This document shows positions 2 to 27,403 of a stretch of 64,000 nucleotides of DNA, piece after piece; position 1 is the stretch's first letter, and each line of letters begins with the position of its first letter. The notes beneath the pieces are model-generated. The model saw only the letters and a program-made list of their open reading frames with translations, made no database searches and was not told the origin of the DNA. The stretch covers positions 405,874-469,873 of the forward strand of contig JAGQKV010000002.1 in the NCBI GenBank assembly GCA_020429915.1. Direction: 5' to 3'. The translations under genes were made by a program, and so were the position numbers. The stretch is from Candidatus Omnitrophota bacterium (GTDB lineage Bacteria > Omnitrophota > Gorgyraeia > Zapsychrales > Zapsychraceae).

Positions 2-151
2 TTCAAAGATGACGGCACCCTGGTCGGCACGGCGCGGACCGTTCACGTGACGATCGACAAGGACACCCAACAAAAAATTCCGTTACCCGAACGCATGAAG
101 GCCCGGATAGCGGAACTGTACGCCGCAGACAATGCCGCATCAGCGGATTAA
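2..151 (+). CDS. C-terminal fragment of a hotdog-fold acyl-CoA thioesterase (YbgC/4HBT-like; possibly DHNA-CoA thioesterase), 5'-truncated by window edge
   Basis: Frame-2 translation FKDDGTLVGTARTVHVTIDKDTQQKIPLPERMKARIAELYAADNAASAD* resembles C-termini of 4HBT-type thioesterases; convergent with men operon. Confidence 0.4.
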   Translation, partial: FKDDGTLVGTARTVHVTIDKDTQQKIPLPERMKARIAELYAADNAASAD

Positions 152-2670: not shown

Positions 2671-3542
2671 CCCACGGAAAACAAGGCACTGTAAATCAAC
2701 AGAATCTTCCCGGTAAACGCCAGCGTGGCATTCAGCCGCTCCCCATCGGTGCTGCCGAAAACCGTCCTTATGCCGGGCAATGCCAACACGCTGATGACAC
2801 TGCAGACCAGGATCGCCACATGATCGTGGATGAGCATGTAAATCAGGACCGGGAGCAGCGCGGCCAGCATCAGACTCACCGCATACTCATACTGACCGAA
2901 TATCGGGCCGAACCGCACCGCCAGCGTTTTTTTACCGCTGCGCCGGTCGCCATCGATATCGCGGTAGTTGTTGACGGCGAGGATGGCCACGGAAATCAAC
3001 CCAGGCCCCAAACCGGCCAGAATTACGGCATAATTCAGTTCGTATGTCTGCACCAGGTATGTTCCGCCCACCGCGACGGGACCGAAAAAAACCAGCACAA
3101 AAAGTTCTCCCAGCCCGAGATATCCCAGCGGCTTAGGTCCTGCCGTATAAAAAATACCGGAAAGGATGCAAACGACCCCGAGCAGACCGATGGGCCAGCC
3201 GCCGCGTTGGACCAATATAAGAAAACCCAGCATGGTCACCGCGAAGACTCCGGCAAAGGCGTTGCGCACCGTTTCAGGTTTGATCAGTCCGGCCTGCGTG
3301 ACTCGCACCGGCCCCACGCGCTCGGCAGTGTCCGTGCCCTTTTTGAAATCATAGTAGTCGTTCGCCAGGTTGGTGCCGATTTGGATCGTCACGGCGGTCA
3401 ACAAACACACCAGCGCCGTCGGCCAGTGCCAGAGTCCGTCGCCGAAGGCCATGGCCGTACCGATGACTACCGGCGCGATCGCCGCCGGCAAAGTCTTGGG
3501 ACGGCACGCCAGCATCCAGTTTTTGATGGCCATTGAGGTCAT
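2658..3542 (-). CDS. menA: 1,4-dihydroxy-2-naphthoate polyprenyltransferase (UbiA family)
   Basis: 294 aa polytopic membrane protein, UbiA-type NDxxD-like motifs (NDYYD, NNYRDIDGD). Confidence 0.85.
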   Translation of the reverse strand: MTSMAIKNWMLACRPKTLPAAIAPVVIGTAMAFGDGLWHWPTALVCLLTAVTIQIGTNLANDYYDFKKGTDTAERVGPVRVTQAGLIKPETVRNAFAGVFAVTMLGFLILVQRGGWPIGLLGVVCILSGIFYTAGPKPLGYLGLGELFVLVFFGPVAVGGTYLVQTYELNYAVILAGLGPGLISVAILAVNNYRDIDGDRRSGKKTLAVRFGPIFGQYEYAVSLMLAALLPVLIYMLIHDHVAILVCSVISVLALPGIRTVFGSTDGERLNATLAFTGKILLIYSALFSVGWIL

Positions 3543-3547
3543 AATCG

Positions 3548-4381
3548 TTACGGGCGTCGCGGAAACTTTGAAAAGTCCGGCTTACGTTTTTCTACAAAGG
3601 CGTTGCGGCCTTCCTGTCCTTCCTCACTCATGTAAAACAGCATCGTCGCGTTGCCCGCTAATTCCTGTAAACCGGCTTGTCCGTCGCAATCAGCATTCAA
3701 CGCCGCCTTCAAACAACGTATGGCCAACGGCGAATTGCTGAGGATCTCGCGACACCATTGCACGGTCTCCGCTTCGAGCTGATCCAACGGAACAACCGTA
3801 TTGACCAAGCCCATCGCCAGCGCCTGCTGCGCATCGTATTGCCGGCAAAGAAACCAGATTTCACGTGCCTTTTTTTGTCCGACGATACGGGCCATGTAAC
3901 TGGCGCCGTACCCCCCGTCAAAGGAGCCGACCCGCGGGCCGGTCTGGCCGAAACGGGCATTTTCCGCCGCGATCGTCAGGTCGCATAAAAGGTGCAGAAT
4001 ATGTCCGCCGCCGATCGCGTAACCGGCGACCATGGCGACAATCGGCTTGGGACAGGTGCGCATCTGGCGCTGGAAGTCCAGCACATTCAGACGATTCGTC
4101 CCGTCGCTGTCCTTATATCCGGCGTCCCCGCGGATTTTTTGATCACCGCCGGAACAAAATGCCTTGTCGCCCTCACCAGTAAGAATAATGACACCGATGG
4201 ATTCATCGTCTCGCGCCTCGTTAAGGGCATGAGACATTTCGTGAACGGTCTGGGGCCGGAAGGCGTTGCGGACCTGCGGCCGGTTGATGGTAATCTTGGC
4301 GATCCCCTCGGCCTTATCATACTTAATATCTTCGTACTGTCCGGCTGATTGCCACTGTATCGATTCTCTCGTCATGGTCAT
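3548..4381 (-). CDS. menB: 1,4-dihydroxy-2-naphthoyl-CoA synthase (crotonase family)
   Basis: [20 protein letters not shown]-terminal KRKPDF motifs typical of MenB. Confidence 0.9.
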
Positions 4382-4382
4382 G

Positions 4383-6152
4383 TTATCCTCTTTCCTGCTT
4401 TCCCAAAGATTTGCGGATTCGGTTGGCGATGGTTTGATGCAAACGGAAGTTCTCTCGGCGGTCGGTCACCACTTCGATGAGTGTGGCGGACTTCGCTTTG
4501 ACGGCGGCGCGGTACGCCTTCTCAAAAGAAGCCGTCGTTTCAGGCCGCTCATAGTGCACGTGAAATTGGCGGGCGATATCGTCAAAATGCATGCCGTGCG
4601 GTGCGGCAAAATAGCGCTCAAAGTCCTTATTATTTTCGGCAATAGGCAGAAATTCAAAAATGCCGCCGCCGTTGTTATTCAGCACGACAATAACCGCGGG
4701 AGGCACATCCCGGGACCACAGCGCCAACGAATTCATGTCGTAGAGAAACGCCAGATCGCCCACCAGGACCGTCACCGGGCGACTCAAACCCTTGGCAAAA
4801 CCGGCGGCGCTGGCCAGTATGCCGTCGATGCCGCTGGCTCCGCGGTTGGCGCCCACCGGCACCTCATGGCGTCCGTCGGCGAAGGCGTCCATTTCCCTCA
4901 CCGCGAGACTGTTGGATACGAACAGCACGTGCGGTTTGGGCAGACAGTTGCTGACGATCTGCATGACGGCCGGCTCGCTGATCCGGGAGTCCCCCGCGCC
5001 CCATTGCCGAATCGTATTTTGAATGGCGGCTTCCTTCCGTTGAAAACGCTTGAGATGTTGTCCGGCCGGACGTTGGCGGACCGCTTGTGCCAACTTGCGC
5101 GCGAATTCCCCGGGGCAGCCTTGAACCCGGATTTCCACCTGATGCTGCGGATCGTTTCGCAACGGATGGTTGAGCACCATGATCACGTCCCGCGGACAAT
5201 AGCGCGCCAACCATTCATAATATGACTTGGCGGTCATGCGACCGCCGAGGTGCAACACCGCATCCACTCCCTCCCGGAGATACGGCAGCAGGTGCTGATA
5301 ATGCCGGATAACAAGATCGCCGTGCGGCGCCAGACGCAATCCCGAAGTGATATCGGGAAAGACCGGCCACTGCAGTTTCTGCGCCAAGCGCAGAACATGG
5401 CGGGTCGCCGCGGGTCCGGACAATTTTCCGCAAACAATGACTCCGGTTTTAGCCGATAGTATCCGTCCCGTGACGGCCTCAACGGCGGCCGCGGCGGGCA
5501 GCGTCTCGGGTGAAAAACAGGTCGTGTATGGGCGGGCGGTGCGCGCCCAACCGTACAACGCAGGGCCAACCGCGGAACCCAGACGGCCCTGTTGGGACTC
5601 GGCGGCAAACGGCTCACGGAACATCCAGTTAATATGGACCGGACCGGGAATCTCGCCCTGCGAACGATAGACGGCCTGATCCATGGTCGTCAATACAAAG
5701 GCCGGGTCGGTCTCAGCGCAGGCCACCGGCAGATCCGTTTCCCACCGGACGTAGCCGGAAAAGATGCCGGGCTGCGTGATCGTTTGATTGGCCCCGGTTT
5801 GACGCAACTCGGGAGGCCGGTCGGCGCTGAGTACCACCAGTGGCAGCTTTTTCTTGGAAGCCTCGATAACTGCGGGCAACAAATTGGCCACGGCCGTCCC
5901 CGATGTCGTAATCACAGCCACCCCGCCTTTACGGGCGGCGGCATAACCCAGGGCATAAAATCCCAAACCGCGCTCATCAAAGTGTACCAGCTGCCGCGCC
6001 TTGGGATTGGCCGCAACCGCCACGGTCAGCGGCGTGGAGCGCGATCCCGGCGCAACACAAAAATACTCGACACCACAGCGGATCAATTCCTCAACGGCGA
6101 GGTCGGCCCATAATTGTTGAAGGTCCGCACTTTTAATCTTTCGGGAACTCAT
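4383..6152 (-). CDS. menD: SEPHCHC synthase (2-succinyl-5-enolpyruvyl-6-hydroxy-3-cyclohexene-1-carboxylate synthase), ThDP-dependent
   Basis: 589 aa ThDP enzyme-like sequence, operon position between menF and menB. Confidence 0.85.
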
Positions 6153-7522
6153 CCGAATACTTTCATGAACCGACTGATCTTGGTTTCAATCTCTTCCCAC
6201 TCGTCATCGGCCTGAGAACCTTCGACGATCCCGGCCCCGGCATACAGGGACAAGATGTGATCGACGACCAATCCCGAGCGGATCGCCACGGCAAACTCAC
6301 AGGATCGGCGGGCGATCCACCCGACCGGCCCCGCGTACCAGCCGCGGGAAAATTCTTCCAAGGCACTGATTTGCCGGCAGGCCTGCGCCGCCGGATATCC
6401 ACCCACGGCAGGGGTCGGATGCAGCGCCCGCAATATGTCGGCCCGTGTGACATCGGCCGACAAGCGCCCGGTCATTTGGGTACAAAGATGCTGCACATTA
6501 TTCAACGCCATGACACCCGGTTCGGCAGGAATTTCAAACTCCGTGCACAACCGCTGCAGCTCCGTACGCAGATGATCGACCACAAACTGCTGCTCCCGCC
6601 GACACTTATCGGAGGCCAACAACTCCCGCCTGAAGGCCTGGGCCTCCTGTTCGCAGACCCCAGCCGGCATCGTCCCCGCCACCGCTTCGGTCAGAATCCG
6701 GTCTCCGTCGAGGCGAAATAAACGTTCGGGAGGCGCACCGACAAAACCGTGATGCGGACGCGGTTGAAAACAAAAATGATAGCAAGCGGGAGACGTCTGG
6801 CTTAAGAAATTGACGAGCGCGCTCGGCCGGATGGGCACATGAAACGCGAAATTACTTTGCCGGGCCAGCACGATCTTATGGTTGCGCTCCAGCCGCAAAC
6901 CGTCCACCAGTCTCCGCCAGGCTCCCCGGTTCGGAAAATCCACCCGGCTTAACCGGCGCGGCACCTGCCGGTAGCGCGTTTCCCCCGAGAACTCCAAGTC
7001 TTGCAACTCGCCGACCACCTGAGAAACAATGTCCGGCGTAATCTCCGCCACCCGTATATTGACGGCGAACACATACTCCGTATCACGACGGACAACTTCA
7101 AACCGGGGGACGACCCAGCGATACGCGCCAAAATCACACCATACGCCAGCTTCATCGCCTGGATCAAAACTGAAACCGCCGTAAAACCGAACCCGCTGAT
7201 TGTCGTCTCCGAGGCTCGCGTCAACGGCATCAAAGACTTCCTGATAGTCCGCCGATCCCGATCCGGTGAGCATTTTGGCCCGTCCGACACCGGCAGTTTC
7301 CTCAATACCTTCCCGGTCCGACCAATAAATCTTCTCGGCATTGACTTGGTTATGCAACCAACCCAACGGACGCATCGGCTCACAGTGAAACTCAAATCGC
7401 AAAACCGTGTCGGCGTCGCCTATCGCCGAGACCATTTGCGGCAACCGGGAAATCTGACCGGTCACGGCCTCACGGAGCTCCGCGTGACCGTACACACGGT
7501 CACTGCAAAACAAGGTCATCAT
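6149..7522 (-). CDS. menF: isochorismate synthase (chorismate-binding enzyme)
   Basis: 457 aa chorismate-utilising enzyme C-terminal domain (GGYPAAQA...SRGWYAGPVGW... AGAGIV). Confidence 0.85.
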   Translation of the reverse strand: MMTLFCSDRVYGHAELREAVTGQISRLPQMVSAIGDADTVLRFEFHCEPMRPLGWLHNQVNAEKIYWSDREGIEETAGVGRAKMLTGSGSADYQEVFDAVDASLGDDNQRVRFYGGFSFDPGDEAGVWCDFGAYRWVVPRFEVVRRDTEYVFAVNIRVAEITPDIVSQVVGELQDLEFSGETRYRQVPRRLSRVDFPNRGAWRRLVDGLRLERNHKIVLARQSNFAFHVPIRPSALVNFLSQTSPACYHFCFQPRPHHGFVGAPPERLFRLDGDRILTEAVAGTMPAGVCEQEAQAFRRELLASDKCRREQQFVVDHLRTELQRLCTEFEIPAEPGVMALNNVQHLCTQMTGRLSADVTRADILRALHPTPAVGGYPAAQACRQISALEEFSRGWYAGPVGWIARRSCEFAVAIRSGLVVDHILSLYAGAGIVEGSQADDEWEEIETKISRFMKVFG

Positions 7523-8247
7523 TCCCGCTCACCCTGATAGATCGTGGCGACACCGAACAGCTGCGGGTGCGCACTGACACGGGAAAATCCCGCCCGACGC
7601 ATCAGTTCGCAAAACTCCTCCCCATAAGGAAATTGCTCAATCGTTTCGTTGAGGTACTTGTAGGCCGCGTACTCGCCGCTCAATAACCAGCCTAAGGCCG
7701 GAACGACGGTGCGCAAGTACAGCAAATGCCCCGCGCGCAACAACGGATTCTTCGGAAAAGAAAACTCCAATATCAGGCTACGCCCGCCCGGTCGCAATAC
7801 GCGGCGCATTTCTTGCAGGGCCACCAGGGGATCATCCACATTGCGGATTCCGAAAGCGATCGTGGTGCAATTGAAGGTTTCTGCTTCAAATGGAATTTTA
7901 TTGGCATTGGCCGTGCGCAGGGTGAGCCTTTTATCAAGATTCTTTTTGATGATTTTCCTGCGGCCGATGTCCAGCATGCGAGCCGCCATATCCACTCCCA
8001 CGCCTTCGGTCAGCCGCGGTGCGTTCTCCGCCAGCGTGATCAGGACATCCGCGGTCCCGGTGGCCAAATCAAGTAATTTAAGATCCGGCTTGTCGGGCAA
8101 ATACGTACACAGCCGGCGGCGCCAGGAAAGGTCCAGCCCCAACGATAACAACCGGTTGAGCAGATCATAACGGGCCGAGATCCGGTTAAACATTTTCCAG
8201 GAATCGGACTTAGGGACAGGAAATTGACGGTCGACGGGATCGGTCAT
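7519..8247 (-). CDS. menG: demethylmenaquinone methyltransferase (UbiE/MenG SAM-dependent methyltransferase)
   Basis: 242 aa; LDLATGTADV SAM motif I; UbiE-like N-terminus FNRISARYDLLN. Confidence 0.85.
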   Translation of the reverse strand: MTDPVDRQFPVPKSDSWKMFNRISARYDLLNRLLSLGLDLSWRRRLCTYLPDKPDLKLLDLATGTADVLITLAENAPRLTEGVGVDMAARMLDIGRRKIIKKNLDKRLTLRTANANKIPFEAETFNCTTIAFGIRNVDDPLVALQEMRRVLRPGGRSLILEFSFPKNPLLRAGHLLYLRTVVPALGWLLSGEYAAYKYLNETIEQFPYGEEFCELMRRAGFSRVSAHPQLFGVATIYQGERE

Positions 8248-8364
8248 TGTGTTCTCTTTTGATTAAGCGGACAGCGAATTTGTCAGAAGATGGTGTATGC
8301 TAACACATTTGGTAGGCAAATTCAAAGCGTAATCCACGGACGGAATCGGCCGGGGGATCCGGGA

Positions 8365-9300
8365 TTACTGCTGGGAAAGGTAGCGTTCGGCCTCCAGGGC
8401 GGCCATGCAACCGGACCCGGCCGCGGTTACCGCCTGGCGGTAAATTTTGTCCTGGACATCCCCGCAGGCAAATACTCCCGGGCGGCTGGTGGCGGTCGAC
8501 TTGCCGCGGGTGACGATGTACCCCGTTTCATCCGTCTCGAGTTGGCCGTCGAGAAAAGCCGTGTTCGGTTCATGGCCGATGGCATAAAACAAACCGCCGG
8601 CCGCGGGAAGACTTTCACCTCCGGATTGATTGTCCACCAGTTTTACCTGCTCCAAACTGTTCTCCCCCAGAACCTCACGTAACTCCGTGTGCCACATAAC
8701 GTCGATTTTCTCGTTACGCGTTACCCGTTCCTGCATAACCTTCGAGGCCCGCATCACGTCCCGCCGGACACACATGATGACCTTGCTGGCGTACTTGGTC
8801 AGATACATCGCCTCCTCGCAGGCCGTATCACCGCCTCCGATCACAAATAAAACCTTATTGCGAAAGATAGGCAACGCCCCATCGCAGACTGCGCAGGCCG
8901 AAATCCCCCGTTGCCAAAGCTTGTCTTCCCCCGTTACGTGCAGGCGCTTGGCCGTCGCCCCGGTGGCGATAATCAATGTCATGCACTCAAGGCTGCTCTT
9001 TCCCGCGGTGACCTTAAAGGGAGCCGTACTCAGATCGACCTTGTCTACGGTCACGGTCTCAATGCGGGCACCGCATTTGAGCGATTGTTCGCGGCACCGT
9101 TCCATCAGTTCCGGCCCCATAATGCCCTGGGGAAAGCCCGGGAAATTTTCGACATCCGTCGTGGTCGTCAGCTGTCCGCCGGCCGCCACACCGCCGGCCA
9201 TCAAACCTTCAAACATCACGGGTTTCAACTGGGCACGTCCGGCGTAGATCGCTGCCGTATGGGCTGCGGGCCCTGAACCTATGATTATGACTCTTTCCAT
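8365..9300 (-). CDS. trxB: thioredoxin-disulfide reductase
   Basis: 311 aa; [13 protein letters not shown] motif, CAVCDG redox-active disulfide, second GGGD NAD(P) motif. Confidence 0.9.
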
Positions 9301-9301
9301 G

Positions 9302-10219
9302 CTAAATCTTGTATTTGTCGAGGATCTTGGTCCGGTCTTTGGAGCCGGCGGCCGCGACCTGTTCCTGCATCAGGGTATCGTACCGGGGTTTGGCCGGATC
9401 ATGATACAGCAGGCCGAAATAGGTCCTGTCGGTATTGGCCAGGGCGAACGCCGCCGTCAAGTCAGAGGGATCATGTTGCAGCTGCTCGGTCTTGTCAGCG
9501 ATCCGCTTGTCGGGCGGGATTCCCTTTTCATGCGTGAGAAAAGAAAACCAATCGGTGGATTTGTGTTCAAAATTATACGGGTCGAAATGCGGACACCGCT
9601 GCGAAACGTGTACAAACGAAAATCCTTTGTGACGGTAGGCCGCCTCCAGCGTATTGACCAAATGATCCGGCATCCAGTCGGCCGTATTAGCCACGAAGGA
9701 AGCGCCGATCCCCAAGACCATACGCAAGGCTTTAATCGGCGCCAGATAAGTACCGGCCGGTTGGGTGTTTGTCTTGTGACCTTGCCGAGTGGTCGGCGAG
9801 GTTTGACTCTTGGTCAGCGCGTACAACTCATTGTCATAAAGGACAAAGACGCAGTTAAAATTCTTGTTGAGCCCGTGGATAAGATGATTCCCGCCGATAC
9901 TGATGGCATCTCCGTCGCCGGAATGAATAAACAGGTTAAGCTCCGGACGGGTTAGAGACAATCCGGTCGCCACCGGGATGGCGCGGCCGTGAATCGAATG
10001 CACACCGTAAGTATTAATGTAAAACGGAGCCCGTCCTGAGCAACCGATGCCTGAGATATTCACGGTATTGTGCGGCGCTATGGCCTGATTAACCATAAAG
10101 CGCTTGATACCCATGATAATACTGAAATCACCGCAGCCCGCGCACCAGCGGGGATTTTCGGTGTTGAGTTCCTTGATCGTCAGCGGGGATTGGGATGATG
10201 GCTCGGTAGCGGTGGTCAT
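9302..10219 (-). CDS. korB: 2-oxoacid:ferredoxin oxidoreductase beta subunit (ThDP-binding)
   Basis: 305 aa; CAGCGDFS ThDP-binding beta-subunit signature; adjacent to alpha subunit. Confidence 0.8.
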
Positions 10220-10223
10220 TTGC

Positions 10224-12047
10224 TTATTCCTTATTCAAAGATTCTTTGATGGCGTTTTCAATGGTCATCGGCGTAATAGGCCGGCCGGTTGCCCGGCAAA
10301 TCATCGGTTTGACATTGACCAATGTCTTTGAGCGCAAAAACATAGCCAATGGAGTCCGCTTGAGGTAATCGCCGAAGGCCAATTCGACCGTCACAACCCT
10401 TTTAAAGCGTTTAAAAATGTCGGCCAACATCAGCGGTAACGGATAAATAACCTTAAAACAAATCCCGCCCGCCTTAAGTCCCTGCTTCTGGCATGACACA
10501 ACTGCTTCGCTTAGAGCACCGAAGGTGCTCCCCCAGCCGATAACCAAAATATCCCCTTCTTGACAATCGCCGATCATCTCGGGTTCTCGGAGACTGCGCT
10601 GCACATGATGAATTTTCTCGTTACGAACGGCATGCGACCGCTGATTGCTCTTGGCGAAATAATTAACCTTTCCTTCTTCATCCGTATTCAAACCGGTGAC
10701 CCGCCGCATGTGCCCCGGGACTCCCGGAGGAGACTGATCACGGCGGACCATCTCAATGTCGTCCGGAAGCCGGCTCATGCCGAAATATTCGAGCACCTCG
10801 TCGGCGATCTCATCGACGTTTTCCTCCAAGGCGTATGCCTTCGGCTTGGGGATTACCTTGTAGCTGTTGGCCATCTGAAAGTCACTCATGATAAATACCG
10901 GCAGCCTCAATTTCTCGGCGAAATAGCGCGCGATTTGCGGCGCGTAGAAGCAATCCAAAATGGATCCAACTCCGATGACGACCTGGGTGTTGTCGCCGTG
11001 CGCCCCGTAGATCGCTGACAGCAGATCTGACTGTTCGGTCTTGGTCGGCATCCCGGTGGATGGCCCCGAACGTTGGACATCAGCGATGATGATCGGAATT
11101 TCCGCCGCCGACGCATAACCGATGAACTCCTGCTTAAGTGACAATCCCGGCCCCGAAGTCGCCGTCAGGGCCGGCGTACCGCCGTAGTACGCCCCGATCG
11201 CCGACCCGATTGCCGAGATCTCGTCTTCTGCCTGGTGCACCATGCCTCCGTACGACGGAAAGCTCCGCGCCAGCGTGTGCATAATTGACGAAGCGGGGGT
11301 AATCGGATATCCGCAGACGATCTTGATGCCGGCATCGATGATCCCCATGCTTAATGCGGTGTTGCCGTCGATAAGTATCTTCTCCTGTGAAGATTCGGCG
11401 GCTGAGGCGATCTCAAAACTAAAATCGAAATTGTTCGACGCGAAATGATGTCCTTCCTGGAAAATTTCGATATTACGCGCCAGCACTTCCTCTTTCAACT
11501 TCTTGCCGAAGGTTGCCGTGATCTCCTCGACCATAGTTTCTTCAGGAACGTTATACATGGCACTGATCATGCCGAGATAATACATATTTTTGCCTTTACC
11601 GGCCAAGGCTTTAATATCGGCCTTGGCGGTGTCGGTCAAATCAAAGGGAAATATTTTCAATCCCAGCTTCGTCGCGCGCTTACAGACCATTTCATAAGAT
11701 TCTTCATTCGTCTTTTGATCGCCGATATCCAACAAAACTCGACAGTTCGGATTATGCTCTTCATCGTCGAGACGTCGATCCAACACGATTTCGTGTTGGG
11801 CAATGAGGATGTCGGTGTCATTCCCGATGTTGGTCAAATCCGTGTCTCCGACGCGAATAATGGTGCCGGACAGGGCCGGCTTTGAACGGGCGGGTGGTGA
11901 AATTTCCGCCGGGATCATCGGTTCGATAAAAACATAGCGCCCGCTGTGGGCAAACGCGCGAATCAGGATATCACCGGCTTTTTGAGCACCGAAACCGGCA
12001 TCCATTAGCAGCTCCATGCGATGAATATGGTGGACTTCTTTTGACAT
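10224..12047 (-). CDS. korA: 2-oxoacid:ferredoxin oxidoreductase alpha subunit (fused gamma-alpha type)
   Basis: 607 aa with N-terminal gamma-like domain (AGFGAQKAGDIL) fused to alpha domain; paired with korB. Confidence 0.75.
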   Translation of the reverse strand: MSKEVHHIHRMELLMDAGFGAQKAGDILIRAFAHSGRYVFIEPMIPAEISPPARSKPALSGTIIRVGDTDLTNIGNDTDILIAQHEIVLDRRLDDEEHNPNCRVLLDIGDQKTNEESYEMVCKRATKLGLKIFPFDLTDTAKADIKALAGKGKNMYYLGMISAMYNVPEETMVEEITATFGKKLKEEVLARNIEIFQEGHHFASNNFDFSFEIASAAESSQEKILIDGNTALSMGIIDAGIKIVCGYPITPASSIMHTLARSFPSYGGMVHQAEDEISAIGSAIGAYYGGTPALTATSGPGLSLKQEFIGYASAAEIPIIIADVQRSGPSTGMPTKTEQSDLLSAIYGAHGDNTQVVIGVGSILDCFYAPQIARYFAEKLRLPVFIMSDFQMANSYKVIPKPKAYALEENVDEIADEVLEYFGMSRLPDDIEMVRRDQSPPGVPGHMRRVTGLNTDEEGKVNYFAKSNQRSHAVRNEKIHHVQRSLREPEMIGDCQEGDILVIGWGSTFGALSEAVVSCQKQGLKAGGICFKVIYPLPLMLADIFKRFKRVVTVELAFGDYLKRTPLAMFLRSKTLVNVKPMICRATGRPITPMTIENAIKESLNKE

Positions 12048-12171
12048 AGCTCCTCGATACTAAGGTAATGGATTTGGGGGTGTTGATTCGAGTTTCATCA
12101 TAGCACCAACCCTATCCAGTTCAATAAAATTTACCAATTTTTTGGGGATTTTTGCGTAAAATCGGCTGGAT

Positions 12172-13332
12172 TTACTGCCTTTTCTCAATACAGGGACGCA
12201 GATCCGCGGCGTCCTTCAAAACGGTCTTTGTTCGGGATTCCGGCTCATCCGGCCGCGTGATGTTCTGCGGGCCGGCGAGGATTTGTTCCAACGGAATCTC
12301 GGACTTAATGGTAAAACCGGCATCCCGGATCATTTCCAGAGTACGGCGACGGTCATCTCCCTTGGTATTGAGATATCCGTCCAAGAATAGGGAATCCGCA
12401 GCATACAGCCCCATCACCTGAAGGCTGCGCAGATGCATTTCACGCCCAGCCGCCATGCGGATCTCAGCCTGCGGATTGATAAACCGGTACAAACATAGCA
12501 CTCGCAGGGCATATTGCGGGGTCAGCCCCTGAGGATCGGTGAGCCGGTTCCCCGGGATCGGCATCAGGAAATTGACCGGTATCGACTCGACCTTGAGCTG
12601 GCTCAGTTCGATGGCGACATCGATCAGGTCCTGTGGATCCTCCTTCATCCCGACAATGACCCCCGAACAGAGCTGCAACCCGGCCTGACGGGCGGCCGCG
12701 AGTGTTTGCCGGCGGTCCGCATATGTGTGAGTCGAGCAAATAGATCCGTAATGCCGTTCGGAGGTATTGAGATTGTGATTAAGCCGGTCCAGACCCGCCT
12801 CCCGGAGGACTGCGGCTTTGTCGGCATCGAGCAAACCGGCTGAAACACAGACTTCCAGCGGGTAGTTTTCTTTGATTTTCCGGATCAGGGCGCCCAGACG
12901 CTCCACCCGACTTCGGGACGGTCCGCGGCCGGCAAATACCATGCAATACCGATGAGCCCCTTTTTCGTAGGCGGCTTTGGCCTCCTTGAGAAACTCCTCA
13001 TCGGACTTGAGCGGGTATTCGTGAATGGCGGAATCGGAGCTCTTGGCCTGGGCACAGTATTGGCAATCTTCCGGACAGTAACCATTCTGGCCGTTGTTGA
13101 TGATATGAATCGTAACTATATTTCCTCGGAATGACTTACGAACAACATACGCGCCATGAAGAAGGTCAAGGATATCAATATCCGGATCGGAAAGCACCTG
13201 TTCGGCGACATTCCTGTCGACCGGCTCCCCGGCCAAGGCCGCGGTCGTCAAGTTCTGGTAAAATTCTGCGTTCACATCTCCTCCTGCTTGGTTTTGAAAG
13301 GATATTGTATTACAAACACTTGTGAATATCAA
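12172..13332 (-). CDS. bioB: radical SAM protein, biotin synthase (BioB)-like with N- and C-terminal extensions
   Basis: CPEDCQYC CX3CX2C cluster motif, LNHNLNTSERHY (BioB YNHNLDT-like); start uncertain. Confidence 0.6.
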   Translation of the reverse strand: MIFTSVCNTISFQNQAGGDVNAEFYQNLTTAALAGEPVDRNVAEQVLSDPDIDILDLLHGAYVVRKSFRGNIVTIHIINNGQNGYCPEDCQYCAQAKSSDSAIHEYPLKSDEEFLKEAKAAYEKGAHRYCMVFAGRGPSRSRVERLGALIRKIKENYPLEVCVSAGLLDADKAAVLREAGLDRLNHNLNTSERHYGSICSTHTYADRRQTLAAARQAGLQLCSGVIVGMKEDPQDLIDVAIELSQLKVESIPVNFLMPIPGNRLTDPQGLTPQYALRVLCLYRFINPQAEIRMAAGREMHLRSLQVMGLYAADSLFLDGYLNTKGDDRRRTLEMIRDAGFTIKSEIPLEQILAGPQNITRPDEPESRTKTVLKDAADLRPCIEKRQ

Positions 13333-13368
13333 GCCGGACCTGGCCGGGGGAAGAAAACGGGAAAAAAT

Positions 13369-13397
13369 TTGGTTTTCTTTATATCAGTATGTATAAT
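13369..13397 (+). promoter_or_regulatory. predicted sigma70-type promoter (TTGGTT-17 nt-TATAAT) for 13426 gene, followed by AGGAGG RBS
   Basis: TTGGTT at 13369-13374, TATAAT at 13392-13397, AGGAGG 8 nt upstream of ATG 13426. Confidence 0.45.
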
Positions 13398-13425
13398 AGT
13401 AAGACATTTTTAAGGAGGATCCAGC

Positions 13426-15252
13426 ATGTCCAACCCGCACACATTCCATATACCGGTGATGGGAACCGCGTTTTCCATCGATACTCCGGTCAAGGTCGCT
13501 CCCTTCGGGATTTCGTCCGTTATTTCCCTGGTAGACGACACACTGATCGAGCAAATGCGCGAGTATTATGCCAACCGGTACCGTATGCAGTTTGAACCGA
13601 TCACCAAATACGACGCTGATTTCCGGGCCCGCCGGATCGAGGAATACCTGAACCTGGTCCGCCATATTGTCGAAGATCACTTCGAAAAGGTCCGCAACTC
13701 GTGTTTCGAGATGGGCGGCGAGATCACCAAGTACTTTGAAATGCTGGCCAACAACTCTCCGCTTAAAAAGCTCTACAAGGAAATGCTGGCGACCGAAGAC
13801 CATGATCTCAAAGCGGAGCTGCAGACCCGTCTGCGAACTTTGATGAAACCGGGCAGCATCGATGTCAACATCATGACCAAGTTGGACAGGACCAATTTCT
13901 CCAGCAAGCGGGAAGAACTCGGGATGGAATTCTCCGATGCTCTCTCCGCCCTGCGCGGGTATGCCCAAAGCACGTTAAATTCGGCTATCATATTCTCAGC
14001 CGGGATCAACCGGCGACTGTACAGCTATGTCGAAAAATTCGAAGATTTCTATGCCGACACCACGGGCCGGATCAAAAAGAAAATCGTGCTGAAGGTCAGC
14101 GATTACCGTTCGGCGCTCATTCAAGGACGCTTTTTTGCCAAGAAAGGATTGTGGGTTTCTGAATTCCGCATCGAATCCGGTCTGAATTGCGGTGGCCATG
14201 CCTTTGCCTCGGACGGATACCTGCTTGGTCCCATTTTGGAAGAATTCAAGAAAAAGCGGACGGAGTTGATTGAAACGCTCTTTAAGATGTGCAATGAAGC
14301 CCTAAGCCAAAAGCAGCGGCCCACGCTGGCGTACCCGCCGGAATTACGCATTACCGCTCAAGGCGGAATCGGCACGGCTCTGGAAGACAGCTTCCTGTTA
14401 AATTACTACGATCTGGACGGAACCGGCTGGGCATCCCCCTTCCTGCTGTGTCCCGAGGTGACCAATGTCGATCTCGAAACCCTGCATAAACTTTCCCGGG
14501 CCGGCGAAGACGACTTGTATCTCAGCGAAGTCTCACCGTTGGGAGTACCGTTCAATAATCTGCGCGACACGCAAAGCGATACGGAACGAGACCGCCGGAT
14601 TACGGCTGGACGTCCGGGGAGCGCATGCCCCAAGGGCCATCTCGTCTCCAATACGGAATTCACGGAGACCCCGATATGTACGGCCTCACGGCAATATCAA
14701 AAATTGAAACTGGAGCAACTCGTTCAGGCCGACCTGAATCCGGCCGAAAAGGAAGCCGAAATTAAGAAGGTCACGGTCAAATCATGCATCTGCCATGACC
14801 TAGGTTCGGCAGCCCTTCTCAACAACGATTTGGTGCGTAAGGGGCAAACCGCCTTCTCCGCCATTTGCCCGGGCCCCAACATGGCCTATTTTTCCCGGAT
14901 CGCTTCGCTCGAAGAAATGATCGCCCACATCTACGGACGCCTCAATCTGCTGAATACAGACAAACGCCCGAATATGTTTATCAAGGAATTGCGGATGTAC
15001 GTGGATTACTTCTGCAAGGAAGTGCAAAAGTCCCTTCCGCAGGTCACGAAAAAGCAACAGGCTTATCTGCAGGAATTCGAGGCGAACATGCTGGATGGAA
15101 TCAACTATTACCGGGGGCTTATTCCCAAGATGGTTGAGGAAACCAAAGAGTATCGCGACCGCGCGCTTGAAGAATTGGAAGAACACCGCTCTCGATTACT
15201 GTCATTTATAGCGAGCCATCCTTCTATTTTTCCGCAGAAGGTCACAACGTAA
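13426..15252 (+). CDS. hypothetical protein, 608 aa; weak NMO/FabK/PfaD-like FMN TIM-barrel motifs
   Basis: Long ORF with strong promoter+RBS; motifs HIPVMGTAFS, GLNCGGHAF, GGIGTALE loosely resemble the NMO/FabK family; not recognised otherwise. Confidence 0.5.
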   Translation: MSNPHTFHIPVMGTAFSIDTPVKVAPFGISSVISLVDDTLIEQMREYYANRYRMQFEPITKYDADFRARRIEEYLNLVRHIVEDHFEKVRNSCFEMGGEITKYFEMLANNSPLKKLYKEMLATEDHDLKAELQTRLRTLMKPGSIDVNIMTKLDRTNFSSKREELGMEFSDALSALRGYAQSTLNSAIIFSAGINRRLYSYVEKFEDFYADTTGRIKKKIVLKVSDYRSALIQGRFFAKKGLWVSEFRIESGLNCGGHAFASDGYLLGPILEEFKKKRTELIETLFKMCNEALSQKQRPTLAYPPELRITAQGGIGTALEDSFLLNYYDLDGTGWASPFLLCPEVTNVDLETLHKLSRAGEDDLYLSEVSPLGVPFNNLRDTQSDTERDRRITAGRPGSACPKGHLVSNTEFTETPICTASRQYQKLKLEQLVQADLNPAEKEAEIKKVTVKSCICHDLGSAALLNNDLVRKGQTAFSAICPGPNMAYFSRIASLEEMIAHIYGRLNLLNTDKRPNMFIKELRMYVDYFCKEVQKSLPQVTKKQQAYLQEFEANMLDGINYYRGLIPKMVEETKEYRDRALEELEEHRSRLLSFIASHPSIFPQKVTT

Positions 15253-15255
15253 GTA

Positions 15256-17115
<1,860 letters not shown>

Positions 17116-17264
17116 CTAATCAAGGATATAGATAATCACAAAAACCGCGATAAGAATTGCCAATATCAACAATACCATAAGCCATGCTATGGTCAGTGCG
17201 CGGGAGTCTTGAAGACGCTCGGCCCGCGCGGCGACAACCGGCCCCGCCGGGGCCTGAAGATATG

Positions 17265-17594
17265 TCAGCTGAATGACGTTCCGCAGCCGCAGCTGTTTGT
17301 CGCGTTGGGGTTTTTATACTGAAAACCGCTTTCTTTGAGCGTATCGACGTAGTGGATTTCCGTGCCCTTGATAAACGGCACGCTCTCCGGATTGATCAGG
17401 ATCTTGACTCTCCCCTGATCTACAATAATATCGTTGTCATACGGCTTCTTTTGAAAACGCATATCATAAGACAAACCCGCGCATCCACCCGTTACAACTC
17501 CCACGCGCAGATAAGCACCTTCCTTGCCCTCTCGTTCAGCCATGGCAAGAATCTTATCAACCGCGGGTTCGGTCAGACGAATAATGTTGTCCAT
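17265..17594 (-). CDS. iron-sulfur cluster insertion/assembly protein (HesB/IscA/ErpA family)
   Basis: 109 aa; C-terminal SCGCGTSF motif typical of A-type carriers. Confidence 0.8.
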   Translation of the reverse strand: MDNIIRLTEPAVDKILAMAEREGKEGAYLRVGVVTGGCAGLSYDMRFQKKPYDNDIIVDQGRVKILINPESVPFIKGTEIHYVDTLKESGFQYKNPNATNSCGCGTSFS

Positions 17595-17715
17595 ATTGGA
17601 AATCCTGTGGGTGTTGGTTACAATCTAAGAATATACCACACAGCTTATATAAGTCAATTTGTAACTTAATTGCTTGGGAGACGGTCGAACACCGGTGGGA
17701 TCCGGAACCTTCGAT

Positions 17716-18300
17716 TCACCGCCACTTGATGGAACATCCCATGGCGGGTTTTTGATCGGAATTGACGGGAAGACCCTGCGTGTACTGGTCAACGGCCGCC
17801 TTCAGCTCTTGTTGCCGGACCTTGGCTTCATTCTGCCAATTATCATCCAAACGACCGTGATAGACCAATTTTTGATTCTCATCAAGCAGGTACAAGTCCG
17901 GCGTACATTGGGCATCGAAAAGGCGTGCCGCTGATTGGTCCTCATCGATCAGATAAAGAAAAGGAATCTCCCACTCCTTAATTTTTTCCAGCATCTTAAC
18001 GGGGCTGTCTTCGGGGTAATCGGGGTGGATATTTGGATTCACGGCCACCGTCATAATGCCGCGCTTCTTGGCATATTCGGAAAGTGTAATCAGCCGCGGC
18101 CAAATCGCTTGGGCGTACGGGCAATGATTGCACATAAACGCCACGATCAGGCCGGCATGTTTTCCCTCGGCAAAGAATGCCTGGGAATCAAACATATCGC
18201 CAGCGGGAGATTTCAGCTGAAAGTGAGGGATTTTTTTGCCTAACGGAATTGCAATCGAGTTGACGAGCGCCATGCTGACTCCATCCTTTCTTATTTTCAT
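17716..18300 (-). CDS. thioredoxin-fold thiol:disulfide oxidoreductase (redoxin/AhpC-TSA family)
   Basis: 194 aa with CNHCPY CxxC motif; start may be internal Met at 18273. Confidence 0.6.
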   Translation of the reverse strand: MKIRKDGVSMALVNSIAIPLGKKIPHFQLKSPAGDMFDSQAFFAEGKHAGLIVAFMCNHCPYAQAIWPRLITLSEYAKKRGIMTVAVNPNIHPDYPEDSPVKMLEKIKEWEIPFLYLIDEDQSAARLFDAQCTPDLYLLDENQKLVYHGRLDDNWQNEAKVRQQELKAAVDQYTQGLPVNSDQKPAMGCSIKWR

Positions 18301-18348
18301 TATAAGTTGGACGGAGGGATTGTCAACCCATTCGGATTGACGGGTGGA

Positions 18349-18774
18349 TTAATTTGGCAACGGTTGGATGTAATAACCGGACACGCGCCATTGCTGATCG
18401 GTGTCGCGCATCGGGGTAACCGTCTCGACCGCCTTGCGGCCGTCTTCCAGGACCGATTGAAACAGCACCACGACGTATTCCCCCTTCGGGGCATTGGGCA
18501 ATTCCGTCATGTACGTCGAAGAAAGAAATTTACGCGAGGCCACCTTCCCCATCGTAGTGCGCACCCGTTTCAGCGATCCGATCCACTGCCCCAGGGTCAA
18601 TTGAGCCTGAAAATGCGACGCCGTTTCCTTGTAGCTCTCTTCATACTGTTCGTTATCAACGAGGACCAGCCAATTTAAGGCGACTTCCTTGATCCCTTGT
18701 TGTTTGGGTGCCTGGGCCCACGCCGGGACCGACAGGGCAGACACCAGCAACATAGTCACTAACACCTTTTTCAT
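18349..18774 (-). CDS. secreted hypothetical protein (DUF4019-like)
   Basis: Signal peptide MKKVLVTMLLVSALSVPAWAQA; ORF-track start at 18963 overextended, ATG at 18774 preferred. Confidence 0.5.
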   Translation of the reverse strand: MKKVLVTMLLVSALSVPAWAQAPKQQGIKEVALNWLVLVDNEQYEESYKETASHFQAQLTLGQWIGSLKRVRTTMGKVASRKFLSSTYMTELPNAPKGEYVVVLFQSVLEDGRKAVETVTPMRDTDQQWRVSGYYIQPLPN

Positions 18775-18823
18775 GATAAACTCCTTCACATCCGCAAATA
18801 GTGCGCTAATTTGGTTGAAATTG

Positions 18824-18851
18824 TTGATCTTTGTGTGGCCTCCGCTATAAT
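18824..18851 (+). promoter_or_regulatory. predicted sigma70-type promoter (TTGATC-16-TATAAT) upstream of MBL hydrolase gene
   Basis: TTGATC 18824-18829, TATAAT 18846-18851. Confidence 0.3.
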
Positions 18852-18907
18852 GATAGCCAAAAAGAACGGAAATGTTAATTACAATATTCGCTATTTTTTC
18901 GTAGTCG

Positions 18908-19564
18908 ATGGATCTCCCCGAACAACTCATACTGAAACAGTTTGAAATCGGCCCTTTAAACAACTTTCTCTATTTTGTCGGTGACGTGTCAAGCGGTGAA
19001 ATTGCAGTAGTTGATCCTGCCTGGGACGTCGATTTTCTGTGCCGCCAGGCTCAACAAATGAACTATTGCATTGTGGCGGTCTTCCTCACACACGGCCATC
19101 CCGACCACGTCAACGGTCTGGATAAAATCCTGTCCCGGCATGATGTGCCTGCATACATTTCACGGCATGAACCCCCATTCTTGACACCCAAGCACAAGAA
19201 TATCGTCACCACCGAAGACGGTCAAATCCTAAAAGTGGGATCCCGCGAGTTTCGCTGCCTGCTCACTCCCGGTCATACCCCGGGATGCCAAAGTTTTCTG
19301 TATGAAAATGTGATGATCTGCGGTGACGCCATTTTTGTGGACGGCTGCGGCCGTTGCGACCTGCCGGGAGGTGACGCCTCGGTAATGTATGACACCCTGT
19401 ACAATATTATTATGCCTCTGCCGGACGACACCGTCATCTTCCCGGGCCACAATTACGGCCCGACACCTTGCGCCACTCTTGCCAGCCAGAAGCGCACCAA
19501 CCCGTATTTGACGTGCCGTAACCGCGAAGAATTTCTGGTACACCGTATGGGCTACGCCGCCTAA
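18908..19564 (+). CDS. MBL-fold metallo-hydrolase (glyoxalase II-like)
   Basis: THGHPDHVNG metal-binding motif. Confidence 0.8.
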   Translation: MDLPEQLILKQFEIGPLNNFLYFVGDVSSGEIAVVDPAWDVDFLCRQAQQMNYCIVAVFLTHGHPDHVNGLDKILSRHDVPAYISRHEPPFLTPKHKNIVTTEDGQILKVGSREFRCLLTPGHTPGCQSFLYENVMICGDAIFVDGCGRCDLPGGDASVMYDTLYNIIMPLPDDTVIFPGHNYGPTPCATLASQKRTNPYLTCRNREEFLVHRMGYAA

Positions 19565-25144: not shown

Positions 25145-26560
25145 TTACGCGGACTTCGGCAGGTAGTTGCGAATGTCACAAATCTTGCCTTCCAGTGCGG
25201 CGATGGCCACCATTTGAGGACTCATCAGGTGCGTGCGCCCTCCCGGACCTTGCCGTCCCTCAAAATTACGGTTGCTCGATGAAGCGCAGCGTTGTCCCGG
25301 CGTGAGTTGATCGTCGTTCATACCCAGGCACATCGAACATCCGGCGAAGCGCCATTCAAAACCGGCCTCGCTAAAAATCCGGTCCAGCCCTTCTCGTTCG
25401 GCTTGCCGGCGCACCCGTCCGGAACCCGGCACGACAATCGCCTGAACATCCTTATGCACCTTTTTTCCTTTAATAATTTCGGCGGCCACCCGCAAATCTT
25501 CAATACGGCCGTTGGTACAGGATCCCAAAAACGCCTTGTCGATGGTGATATCGGATATCTTGGTTCCCGGCTTGAGACCCATGTATTCCAGGGCATTGCG
25601 GGCTCCGGCGCGCGCCACCGGATCGGTAAAATCATCCGGGTCCGGGACCGTCCCTTCGACATCGGTGACCTGTCCCGGGGATGTCCCCCACGTCACCTGC
25701 GGCTTGATATCTTCGGCCTTGATATGCAGCTCATGATCAAATACGGCATCCGGATCCGAAGGCAGCGTGCGCCAGTAAGCGACGGCTTCCTCCCAGTCGT
25801 CTCCCGTAGGGCTGTGATCCCGGTCCTTTAAGTAGGCATACGTCGTGTCATCCGGCGCAATCATACCGGCACGGGCGCCGGCCTCGATGCTCATGTTGCA
25901 AATGGTCATCCGGCCCTCCATAGTCAAAGCGCGGATCGCGCTTCCGGCGTACTCGACCACATACCCGGTGGCACCGGCGGTTCCGATCTGACCGATGATG
26001 TACAGAATGATATCCTTGGGCGTCACTCCGAATCCCAATGTTCCTTCAATACTGATCAGCATGGATTTCGATTTGTTCTGCTGCAGCGTTTGAGTGGCCA
26101 GAACATGCTCCACTTCCGAAGTACCGATGCCGAAGGCGAGGGCGCCGAACGCGCCGTGGGTCGACGTATGAGAATCTCCGCACACGATCGTCAGTCCCGG
26201 CTGGGTAATCCCCATCTCCGGGCCGATAACATGCACAATCCCCTGGTCCTGATGCTTGAAATCATACAGGATGACATTAAAATCCCGGCAATTCTTGGCC
26301 AGCGTTTCCATCTGGATACGGGAAGTCTCCTCCACCAAGGACCAATCTTTGGTCCGGGTGGACACATTGTGATCCATGGTTGCAAAAGTTTTTTCCGGAC
26401 GCCGGACTTTACGGTGAGTAAGGCGCAAGCCCTCGAAGGCCTGGGGTGAAGTCACTTCATGAATGAGATGCCGGTCGATATAGATGATGGCGGTATCGCC
26501 TTGGCTTTCGCGGACCAAATGCGCATCCCAAATCTTGTCATACATTGTTTTGCCGGACAT
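25145..26560 (-). CDS. leuC: 3-isopropylmalate dehydratase large subunit
   Basis: 471 aa aconitase-family catalytic domain, [12 protein letters not shown]-terminus; Fe-S cysteines. Confidence 0.9.
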
Positions 26561-26658: not shown

Positions 26659-27366
26659 TCAGTCCGGCTGCTCATAAGCCAACCGTTCGAAGGTATCCAT
26701 TTCGATACGGTACGCCGGTACAGCCTCCCGCCCCGCCACAGGGACGATTTTGTAATGTCCCTTCACCCGGCCGCCGCTCGGACAACAGTTACCGTCATGC
26801 CGTTCGCGCCAGATGAAAAACTCAAAATCGAGACCGTCTCCGGAAAAGCGGTTGTTTTCCCCTTTCCAAACGGCCTCGCCGACAGCTAAATACGGACGAT
26901 AGGATTCCGGAGCCGGAACATAATCCACGGGCTGTAACGTCAAGCCCCCACCTTCTGAGCCGATCCGGTATATATGCTCCTGGGTAAAGCTTCCCGTCCC
27001 GTAAATCTTCTCCGTCAGCTGCAGAAGAAAAAGACGGTCGCGGCGACCGGCCAGGCCCCGGGTTTCATACGGAAAAAAATTCGGACGAAGCAGATAACCG
27101 TTGCCCTGGGTTGAAACTTCTTCAAGGAGCCGATAACCGTCGGCCTCCCGGGCATAAATGCGGGCGATGTGATCGGGACCGTATTTCCGGTCGCTGACAT
27201 GCACGGTGATGAAGATTTCCTGCTGATTCCAAACCTGCTCCGTGAAAGCCCAGCGGAGTTCGTAAACATCTCCGCCGTCACCTGTATAGGAGATCACCGC
27301 TGCAGACTTCGACACCGGCTGCCCGGCGTACGTCGTAACGGGAAGCAAAAACAACAACACCAGCAT
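26659..27366 (-). CDS. secreted hypothetical protein
   Basis: Signal peptide [15 protein letters not shown]; ORF-track start overlaps acnA so internal ATG 27366 chosen. Confidence 0.45.
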
Positions 27367-27403
27367 GATGCCGACGCCTCGGATGAAGTTATCCTTTCCC
27401 GGC

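Follow-up and report, generated by a model that had tools for sequence, protein, structure and literature searches.

The best structural match of the protein considered here is FabX of Helicobacter pylori (HP0773; Protein Data Bank (PDB) entries 7e1q and 9lt5), a decanoyl-acyl carrier protein (ACP) dehydrogenase/isomerase that contains flavin mononucleotide (FMN) and a [4Fe-4S] cluster (PMC8626469). The [4Fe-4S] subdomain of FabX, which comprises residues 267–363 and includes C300, C304, C308 and C320, replaces the motif with which FabK binds reduced nicotinamide adenine dinucleotide (phosphate) (NAD(P)H), and the FMN contacts of FabX include N99, E175, G180, G221, Q240 and T243; the same paper equates His144 of FabK with His182 of FabX (PMC8626469). 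The present analysis concerns a gene on the plus strand of a 64,000-nucleotide (nt) stretch of DNA from a Candidatus Omnitrophota bacterium (contig JAGQKV010000002.1); this whole stretch is referred to as the window, and positions are counted from its first nucleotide. The open reading frame (ORF) occupies positions 13426–15252, from an ATG start to the stop codon at 15250–15252, and encodes a protein of 608 amino acids (aa), which an earlier note, made from the sequence alone, had described as being of unknown function and loosely similar in motifs to nitronate monooxygenase (NMO), FabK and PfaD. The protein very probably belongs to the NMO-like FMN triosephosphate isomerase (TIM)-barrel superfamily (NMO/FabK/FabX/PfaD), and is best described as representing a new, large branch of this superfamily that carries two added modules and a distinctive five-cysteine signature. 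It is not a Pfam NMO protein, not FabX and not PfaD, and it is not demonstrably FabK.

Fold and superfamily placement

A structural model of the protein was calculated with AlphaFold2 from an alignment of 58 sequences, whose identity to the target goes down to 33% and on which all conservation figures given here are based. The model has a mean predicted local distance difference test (pLDDT) score of 95.3 and a predicted template-modelling (pTM) score of 0.93, and the homologues are conserved over the full length of the protein; the gene is real. A Foldseek search of this model against the PDB, a check that the earlier note had proposed, returned 36 matches at E ≤ 1e-3, and the NMO-like barrel group fills the 34 best of them, which comprise FabX, PfaD, trans-acyltransferase (trans-AT) enoyl reductases, FabK, NMO-family enzymes and chains of type I fatty acid synthase (FAS-I). 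H. pylori FabX is the top match (ranks 1–3 and 7–8; E 2.8e-11; template-modelling (TM) score 0.66 normalised to FabX; 17% identity), followed by PfaD, DfnA/MlnA, FabK, nitronate monooxygenases, the quinone reductase PA1024 and fungal and mycobacterial FAS-I, with GuaB3 in last place. No structure of an Old Yellow Enzyme or of FadH is among the listed Foldseek matches, and trimethylamine dehydrogenase ranks 39th (E 3e-3).

For comparison at the profile level, an NMO/FabK profile was assembled from 12 sequences, namely Streptococcus pneumoniae FabK (whose sequence matches PDB 2z6i with 690 bits over residues 1–324) and 11 NMO/FabK proteins taken from plasmid records and fetched loci. The full family profile was aligned with this profile by hhalign at 72% probability (E 3.3e-5, 307 columns), and at 93.9% probability (E 1.6e-7) when residues 41–139, 263–302, 386–475 and 516–608 were removed. 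DVN148IM is paired with GVNIM of FabK, ESGLNCGGH258 with EGMEAGGH144, QGGIG with AGGIA, GWxxPF with VGTRF, and C481-P-G-P with the terminal AGQ loop; thus H258, which is present in all 58 sequences, is aligned with the catalytic His144 of FabK. The three motifs on which the earlier note had based its comparison (HIPVMGTAFS, ESGLNCGGHAF and GGIGTALE) were all found in the protein, and the resemblance that it regarded as loose represents true remote homology, as indicated by the Foldseek matches, by the hhalign result and by the correspondence of the motifs to VNI, GGH, GGI and GTRF of FabK.

No model of Pfam-A or NCBIfam matches the 608-aa protein, those of NMO (PF03060) and nitronate monooxygenase included, and only one of the 58 family members reaches Pfam NMO (E 1.4e-4). 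Sequence searches of the PDB, performed with the protein (phmmer) and with the family profile, returned only helical-repeat noise; the weak matches to "apolipoprotein" and designed helical proteins were rejected as noise from the C-terminal helices. A close relation to HP0773 was not found, the identity being 17% compared with ~36–50% in the literature, and phmmer and hmmsearch comparisons with the PDB FabX chains were null. Full-text literature searches found no paper on the family, and no other NMO/FabK homologue was found in the window. The description of the product as a protein of unknown function outside any characterised family is therefore upheld, and neither a family match nor a conserved genomic context that would connect it to such a family was found.

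The features of the coding region are as follows.

13426..15252, plus strand: coding sequence of the 608-aa protein (ORF reading, homologues, structural model)
13426..13545, plus strand: residues 1–40, first barrel strands with HIPVMGT(G/A)F and GISSVISL (model strands E7–9 and E30–34)
13546..13842, plus strand: residues 41–139, family-specific helical insertion of ~100 aa (model helices H38–51, H66–90, H99–105, H112–122 and H126–139)
13843..14460, plus strand: residues 140–345, predicted FMN TIM-barrel core (hhalign; Foldseek matches to FabX/FabK/PfaD; invariant residues)
14173..14199, plus strand: predicted catalytic loop E250-S-G-L-N-C255-G-G-H258 (hhalign; H258 in 58 and C255 in 57 of the 58 sequences)
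14581..14868, plus strand: residues ~386–481, cysteine-rich subdomain, putative iron-sulfur (Fe-S) or other metal site (conservation; insertion relative to FabK)
14971..15249, plus strand: residues 516–608, C-terminal antiparallel three-helix bundle (H517–536, H542–568 and H574–596; models)

In the first barrel strands, G13, G28, S31 and S34 are nearly invariant; by eye, HIPVMGT(G/A)F and GISSVISL resemble the "P-I-x-Q-G-G-M" and "AGGLG" elements of NMO/FabK, this segment lying outside the hhalign alignment. The helical insertion, in which R67, R70 and L107 are nearly invariant, has no credible counterpart in FabK by hhalign, and may possibly form a lid or a substrate tunnel. The barrel core contains the motifs DVNIMTK (N148), LKVSDYRSA (K223), the catalytic loop, QGGIGT (Q312–G314) and GW(A/G)xPF. 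Residues ~345–385 and ~476–515 are post-barrel elements that align to the end of FabK, and the segment in which FabK has its NAD(P)H motif is interrupted here, according to hhalign, by an insertion of ~95 aa. E521 of the three-helix bundle is invariant, and the 20 invariant columns of the alignment include N148, K223, E250, S251, G257, H258, C401, C418 and C456. The C-terminal ~250 aa, which had been regarded as featureless, do lack a structural relative in the PDB when taken alone; they nevertheless contain FabK-like segments, the cysteine-bearing insertion and the three-helix bundle.

At least 8000 significant clusters at 90% identity were found by a word-indexed search, the listed matches being nearly all full length, and an exhaustive search of representatives identified 1086 clusters at 50% identity, 227 of them at E ≤ 1e-30. 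The listed family matches carry either no name or the name "hypothetical protein", and all ten representatives that were looked up are described only as hypothetical. Matches were found in at least 594 species-level genomes, and the closest relatives among the listed genome matches are Omnitrophota. The carriers in Bacteroidota include the cultured genera Runella, Pontibacter, Adhaeribacter, Dyadobacter and Gillisia as well as metagenome-assembled genomes (MAGs) of Mucilaginibacter, Pedobacter and Chitinophaga; other carriers belong to Ignavibacteriota, Acidobacteriota, Zixibacteria, Sumerlaeota and Elusimicrobia, with a few MAGs of Pseudomonadota and Desulfobacterota. Both aerobes and anaerobes are represented.

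Cysteine-rich subdomain, gene fusions and proposed reaction

Five conserved cysteines characterise the family: C401 (14626; 58 of 58 sequences), C418 (14677; 58 of 58), C454 (14785; 57 of 58), C456 (14791; 58 of 58) and C481 (14866; 56 of 58). The first four are located within the insertion of residues 386–475, which in the hhalign comparison with FabK follows the R-x-x-N segment and precedes the terminal FMN loop, and C481 lies just before the last flavin loop. In FabX, the subdomain that holds the cluster is assigned to the corresponding part of the fold (PMC8626469). On the basis of this conservation and location we infer, with good motivation, that the five-cysteine region may bind a metal or an Fe-S cluster.

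In two independent Omnitrophota-type MAGs, the family member (P0121, 1167 aa; an ORF of locus L018, 1168 aa) carries an appended, complete CysJ-like reductase composed of flavodoxin, flavin adenine dinucleotide (FAD) and NADPH domains, which matches TIGR01931 with 548–566 bits over model positions 58–597, below the cysJ equivalog cut-off of 668 bits. Modules of the CysJ type take electrons from NADPH and hand them singly to partners that contain Fe-S, heme or siroheme; in sulfite reductase, the electrons are supplied by CysJ one by one to a [4Fe-4S]-siroheme partner. On thermodynamic grounds, NADPH (−320 mV) should be able to drive enoyl reduction, and acyl dehydrogenation should be unable to reduce NADP+; the CysJ-fused forms would therefore run reductively and take up electrons singly, and such single-electron delivery would fit an Fe-S relay to FMN. 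Another relative (P0148, 981 aa, found in two samples) is fused to a PlsB/PlsC-type acyltransferase domain, which hints at a role in acyl-lipid metabolism. A full-length member fused to a TetR domain (P0133, 812 aa) was given no weight, as no TetR neighbours were identified at other loci. In P0231 (418 aa), a fragment of the family is joined to the glucuronate isomerase UxaC; no other locus supports either this or the TetR fusion, and both may be artefacts of gene calling or assembly.

The genomic surroundings of relatives were surveyed by clustering the ORFs of 80 genome loci, and five further contigs were inspected. No conserved operon was identified, and even the most frequent neighbour family is present in no more than 12 of the 80 loci; the contigs of the distant members P0182, P0196 and P0179 have unrelated neighbours. 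Because the neighbours vary in this way, an assignment of function from gene neighbourhood was rejected. Genes for 2-oxoacid:ferredoxin oxidoreductase lie no more than two genes from the target in the window and from its counterparts in related Omnitrophota-type loci. In two Cytophagales-type (Bacteroidota) genomes, a Cytophagaceae MAG (L045, 4489–9800) and Emticicia (L062, 4838–9800), the alpha and beta genes of this oxidoreductase immediately precede the family member in the same orientation, with a gap of 250–290 nt. These arrangements are weakly consistent with a donor of the ferredoxin type.

The reading that we tentatively favour, and which as a complete chain is possible rather than probable, is that of an FMN oxidoreductase with an Fe-S relay, fed by an electron donor and reducing the C=C bond of an α,β-unsaturated acyl thioester; this reading predicts that the protein binds FMN and an Fe-S cluster, receives electrons from such a donor, works in the reductive direction and acts on a thioester. 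The protein would be a soluble flavoenzyme whose barrel holds FMN by means of VNIM (N148), K223, E250/S251, the glycines 256–257, QGG 312–314 and C-P-G-P 481–484, and H258, probably together with C255, would serve as the acid/base beside the flavin. The subdomain containing C401, C418, C454, C456 and C481 would most likely hold an Fe-S cluster, in the place that is occupied by the cluster in FabX and by the NAD(P)H motif in FabK, and through this cluster electrons from an external donor of low potential would reach FMN one at a time. In most members the donor may be a ferredoxin or a flavodoxin; in the two Omnitrophota-type relatives it would be the fused CysJ-type NADPH-FAD-FMN reductase, and the electrons would follow the path NADPH → FAD → FMN → [Fe-S] → FMN → C=C. 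The reduced FMN would give a hydride to the β-carbon and His258/Cys255 a proton to the α-carbon of the predicted substrate, which would resemble an enoyl-ACP or enoyl-coenzyme A (CoA) intermediate of lipid metabolism. The proteins that match best in structure, namely FabX, PfaD, the trans-AT enoyl reductases, FabK and FAS-I, have acyl or enoyl thioesters as their substrates.

Several observations weigh against the reductive Fe-S proposal. The spacing of the cysteines (C-x16-C-x35-C-x-C-x24-C) is unlike that of FabX (C-x3-C-x3-C-x11-C), and the cysteines may instead serve as a structural zinc site or as a redox dithiol. When the C-terminal 264 residues, comprising the cysteine-rich region and the helix bundle, were modelled alone (pLDDT 80.9), a fold search of the PDB returned only generic three-helix bundles (E ≥ 0.27), so that the cysteine-rich subdomain is unmatched to any known Fe-S or Zn fold. 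The CysJ-type and acyltransferase fusions are rare (three among ~290 sequences), and the proximity of ferredoxin oxidoreductase genes amounts to only two independent events. As regards the substrate, no gene for fatty acid synthesis, ACP or polyketide synthase (PKS) is conserved beside the family in the 80 loci and five contigs, and the superfamily has other members that act on non-lipid substrates such as nitronates and quinones. In two Chitinophagaceae loci a FabK coexists with the family member (E 1e-72 to 1e-75 against S. pneumoniae FabK), and a role as replacement enoyl-ACP reductase is thus unneeded there. These canonical FabK genes are located 4–5 kb downstream of the family member, at 14080–15018 of L024 and 13556–14509 of L030, both from Chitinophagaceae MAGs.

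Among the other explanations, that of a FabX-type oxidative acyl-ACP dehydrogenase/isomerase, which would introduce a cis double bond for unsaturated fatty acids and pass FMN electrons through its Fe-S cluster to O2 or to an anaerobic acceptor, draws on the position of FabX as top structural match, on the presence of a cysteine-rich subdomain at the same region of the fold in both proteins and on the occurrence of the family in aerobes and anaerobes alike; homologues of FabX act anaerobically with an unknown acceptor (PMC11300592). It is nevertheless unlikely, given the 17% identity, the different cluster motif (C300-x3-C304-x3-C308-x11-C320 is absent from the 608-aa protein), the helical insertion and three-helix bundle that FabX lacks, and the CysJ-type NADPH reductase fusions, which make sense only for reduction. 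In addition, the family has no NMO annotation, unlike a recognised FabX of Bacteroidales, which is ~40% identical to HP0773 and is annotated as a nitronate monooxygenase flavoprotein (PMC11300592). None of the NMO-family ORFs taken from plasmid matches contains a FabX-like cysteine motif. An enzyme able to bind NAD(P)H on its own would have no need of the reductase fusions. Together with the apparent replacement of the FabK NAD(P)H-motif segment (as defined in PMC8626469) by the ~95-aa insertion, these fusions make it improbable that the protein works like FabK as an enoyl-ACP reductase that uses NAD(P)H directly, with the cysteines forming a structural zinc site, even though its catalytic GGH loop and flavin motifs align with those of FabK. 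Clusters of cysteines with long, irregular spacing often do bind zinc.

The fatty-acid likeness could also be no more than a shared scaffold, in which case the protein would be an FMN oxidoreductase of the NMO/PA1024 type that acts on a nitronate, a quinone or a small electrophile. NMO and the NADH:quinone reductase PA1024 are themselves significant structural matches (E 1e-7 to 1e-5), lipid genes are lacking from the context, and a solitary gene with variable neighbours would suit an enzyme that works alone in housekeeping or detoxification; against this stand the acyl-thioester enzymes as best matches with the highest TM scores, the acyltransferase fusion of one relative, and the conserved extra modules of a protein almost twice the size of NMO, and a non-lipid substrate is considered rather unlikely. 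A trans-acting enoyl reductase of the PfaD kind, serving a polyunsaturated fatty acid (PUFA) synthase, a PKS or another secondary-lipid synthase, would agree with the ranks of PfaD and DfnA/MlnA in the fold search (4–13) and with the similar size of PfaD (about 500–540 aa). The TM scores to PfaD are low (0.33–0.40), and no synthase is conserved nearby in the 80 loci; the six largest neighbouring ORFs that were checked encode toxins, kinases, tetratricopeptide repeat proteins and a protease, none being a PKS or PUFA synthase. For want of synthase neighbours this role was rejected, and it is regarded as highly improbable.

Expression signals and neighbouring genes

The signals upstream of the gene and the two flanking genes, the latter given for context only, are as follows.

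13369..13397, plus strand: putative sigma-70-type promoter (−35 TTGGTT at 13369–13374, 17-nt spacer, −10 TATAAT at 13392–13397; read from the sequence)
13413..13418, plus strand: Shine-Dalgarno sequence AGGAGG, 7 nt before the ATG (read from the sequence)
12172..13275, minus strand: bioB, biotin synthase, divergent neighbour (TIGR00433, 359 bits against a cut-off of 225)
15256..17052, minus strand: thiC, convergent neighbour (NF006763, 1025 bits)

The TTGGTT-17-TATAAT element and the AGGAGG that the earlier note had placed upstream of the gene are both present; 13333, the first position that it gave for this piece, marks where the intergenic region begins, the ATG of the gene being located at 13426. 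To call the promoter "textbook" was an overstatement: the −10 hexamer is perfect, whereas the −35 hexamer matches TTGACA at only three of six positions, for which reason the promoter was not listed by a consensus scanner. A pattern search found no extended −10 (TGnTATAAT) at this promoter, the TG before TATAAT being out of register, and TGTATAAT, initially taken for an extended −10, was rejected on this ground. The pattern TTG-N20-TATAAT occurs at two sites in the window compared with 0.29 expected, and one in 100 shuffles reaches two; one of the sites is that located 28 nt upstream of the ATG of the target, a sensible distance from a start codon. The second site (TTGACG...TATAAT, minus strand, 30194–30222) lies just upstream of the larger of two nearby genes of the aconitase family (25145–26560 and 27404–30106, minus strand), in the gap before a divergent gene for a 530-aa radical S-adenosylmethionine protein (30256–31848). 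A 309-aa ORF (26659–27591, minus strand) and the large aconitase ORF overlap at the start of the latter, and one of the two starts was probably mis-called; neither the 309-aa ORF nor one of 256 aa (45427–46200, minus strand) has a Pfam match at E ≤ 1e-5.

The target had been described as the only plus-strand gene in a 22-kb stretch of minus-strand genes, and it is indeed the sole plus-strand gene there; the stretch is shorter, about 19 kb (140–18963), and the next plus-strand genes begin at 18908 and 19570. The first part of this run contains menE, menC, menA, menB, menD, menF, ubiE, trxB, the beta and alpha genes of a 2-oxoacid:ferredoxin oxidoreductase and bioB; after bioB and the target come thiC, an IscA-like gene, a peroxiredoxin gene and a DUF4019 gene. 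The position of the target between genes for BioB and ThiC is correct as previously stated, being supported by the matches given above. In the clustering of the 80 loci, the bioB, thiC, trxB and ferredoxin oxidoreductase flanks were confined to Omnitrophota-like relatives and reflect synteny rather than an operon; the adjacency of the target to bioB and thiC is lineage synteny within Omnitrophota that provides no clue to function.

The bioB ORF was listed from a TTG at 13332 (12172–13332, minus strand), and its true start is likely the GTG at 13275, which lies behind an AGGAGG at 13285–13280 and a TTGATA-17-TACAAT element at 13332–13304. With this start, the intergenic region measures ~150 nt (13276–13425) and would contain two back-to-back divergent promoters. 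At the other end, only 3 nt separate the stop codon of the target from that of thiC (15250–15258), and no terminator-like hairpin was found between them; it follows that the two convergent transcripts either overlap or terminate within the gene on the other strand. A search of the whole window with Rfam at gathering thresholds returned nothing, and hence no thiamine pyrophosphate riboswitch was identified in the 5′ region of thiC (17053–17700); thiC may be co-transcribed with the upstream IscA-like gene (17265–17594).

Elsewhere in the window, a near-complete classical menaquinone operon was observed at 140–8247 on the minus strand (an AMP-binding MenE-like gene, menC, menA, menB, menD, menF and ubiE/menG), in which no MenH was seen. 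Genes for aerobic respiration are located at 34839–40693 and 46238–50307 on the minus strand and encode CtaB (UbiA family), CtaA, a COX2-like protein, COX1, a 977-aa multi-haem cytochrome c and a cytochrome b-like protein. The closest relatives of the genome are Omnitrophota MAGs.

Meaning and comparison with known systems

The annotation gap that surrounds this family is unusually large for one with so many clusters at 90% identity, since it has neither a Pfam or NCBIfam model nor a solved relative that sequence comparison can detect, and its carriers include cultured soil and aquatic Bacteroidota together with many uncultured phyla. Its placement beside FabX, FabK and PfaD predicts an FMN and Fe-S enzyme with a low-potential donor and an acyl-thioester substrate. 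A broader proposal, namely that the family constitutes a hitherto unrecognised, widespread ferredoxin/flavodoxin-dependent FMN-[4Fe-4S] class of lipid synthesis, either a new enoyl-ACP reductase or an oxygen-independent desaturating/saturating enzyme, is doubtful. If it were true, it would fill a gap in the making or remodelling of fatty acids in Bacteroidota, Ignavibacteriota, Omnitrophota, Acidobacteriota and allied phyla, and could explain part of the fatty acid metabolism of phyla that have an incomplete set of the known enzymes. The list of bacterial Fab proteins, which serve as targets of antibiotics and give rise to triclosan-type resistance, would also be extended if the protein were a new enoyl reductase or a desaturating enzyme. 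Should the substrate be a non-lipid compound, the family would still represent a new architecture in a well-studied flavoenzyme superfamily, and the interest would be narrower.

FabX shares with the target the NMO-type FMN barrel, the position of the catalytic His and a cysteine-bearing subdomain in the apparent place of the NAD(P)H motif of FabK. It differs in length (363 aa versus 608 aa), the target adding the helical insertion of ~100 aa, the three-helix bundle and Cys255 in the catalytic loop, and in the direction of the reaction, as the NADPH reductase fusions of the target family point to reduction and not to O2-linked dehydrogenation. FabK (PDB 2z6i) and Pfam NMO (PF03060) line up with the target at the VNI, E-x-GGH, GGI and GTRF motifs, whereas the target has no match to Pfam NMO, is almost twice as long and has a cysteine-rich insertion in the region of the NAD(P)H motif. 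PfaD and the trans-AT PKS enoyl reductases (PDB 4yx6, 6lkc, 4cw5 and 4z38) are matched in fold (E 1e-10 to 1e-8), are comparable in overall length and have lid-like additions to the barrel; they differ in that TM scores are 0.3–0.47, no PUFA or PKS synthase is found near the target, and PfaD-type enzymes use NAD(P)H directly.

In the 2,4-dienoyl-CoA reductase FadH, electrons pass from NADPH through FAD and a [4Fe-4S] cluster to FMN and then to the C=C bond of an acyl thioester. FadH and trimethylamine dehydrogenase, which combine an FMN TIM barrel with a [4Fe-4S] cluster and an NADPH/FAD module, would share the logic proposed for the target, and the CysJ-fused relatives would recreate the arrangement in one polypeptide; these enzymes have a barrel of the Old Yellow Enzyme type, whereas that of the target is of the NMO type, and the likeness is one of analogy, not of membership. 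The CysJ-CysI sulfite reductase has in common with the fused relatives the full CysJ-like flavodoxin-FAD-NADPH module, and differs in its partner, which is a siroheme protein in sulfite reductase and an FMN barrel in the fusions. Seen beside these systems, the family probably carries out a modified form of the flavin/Fe-S enoyl chemistry that is already known.

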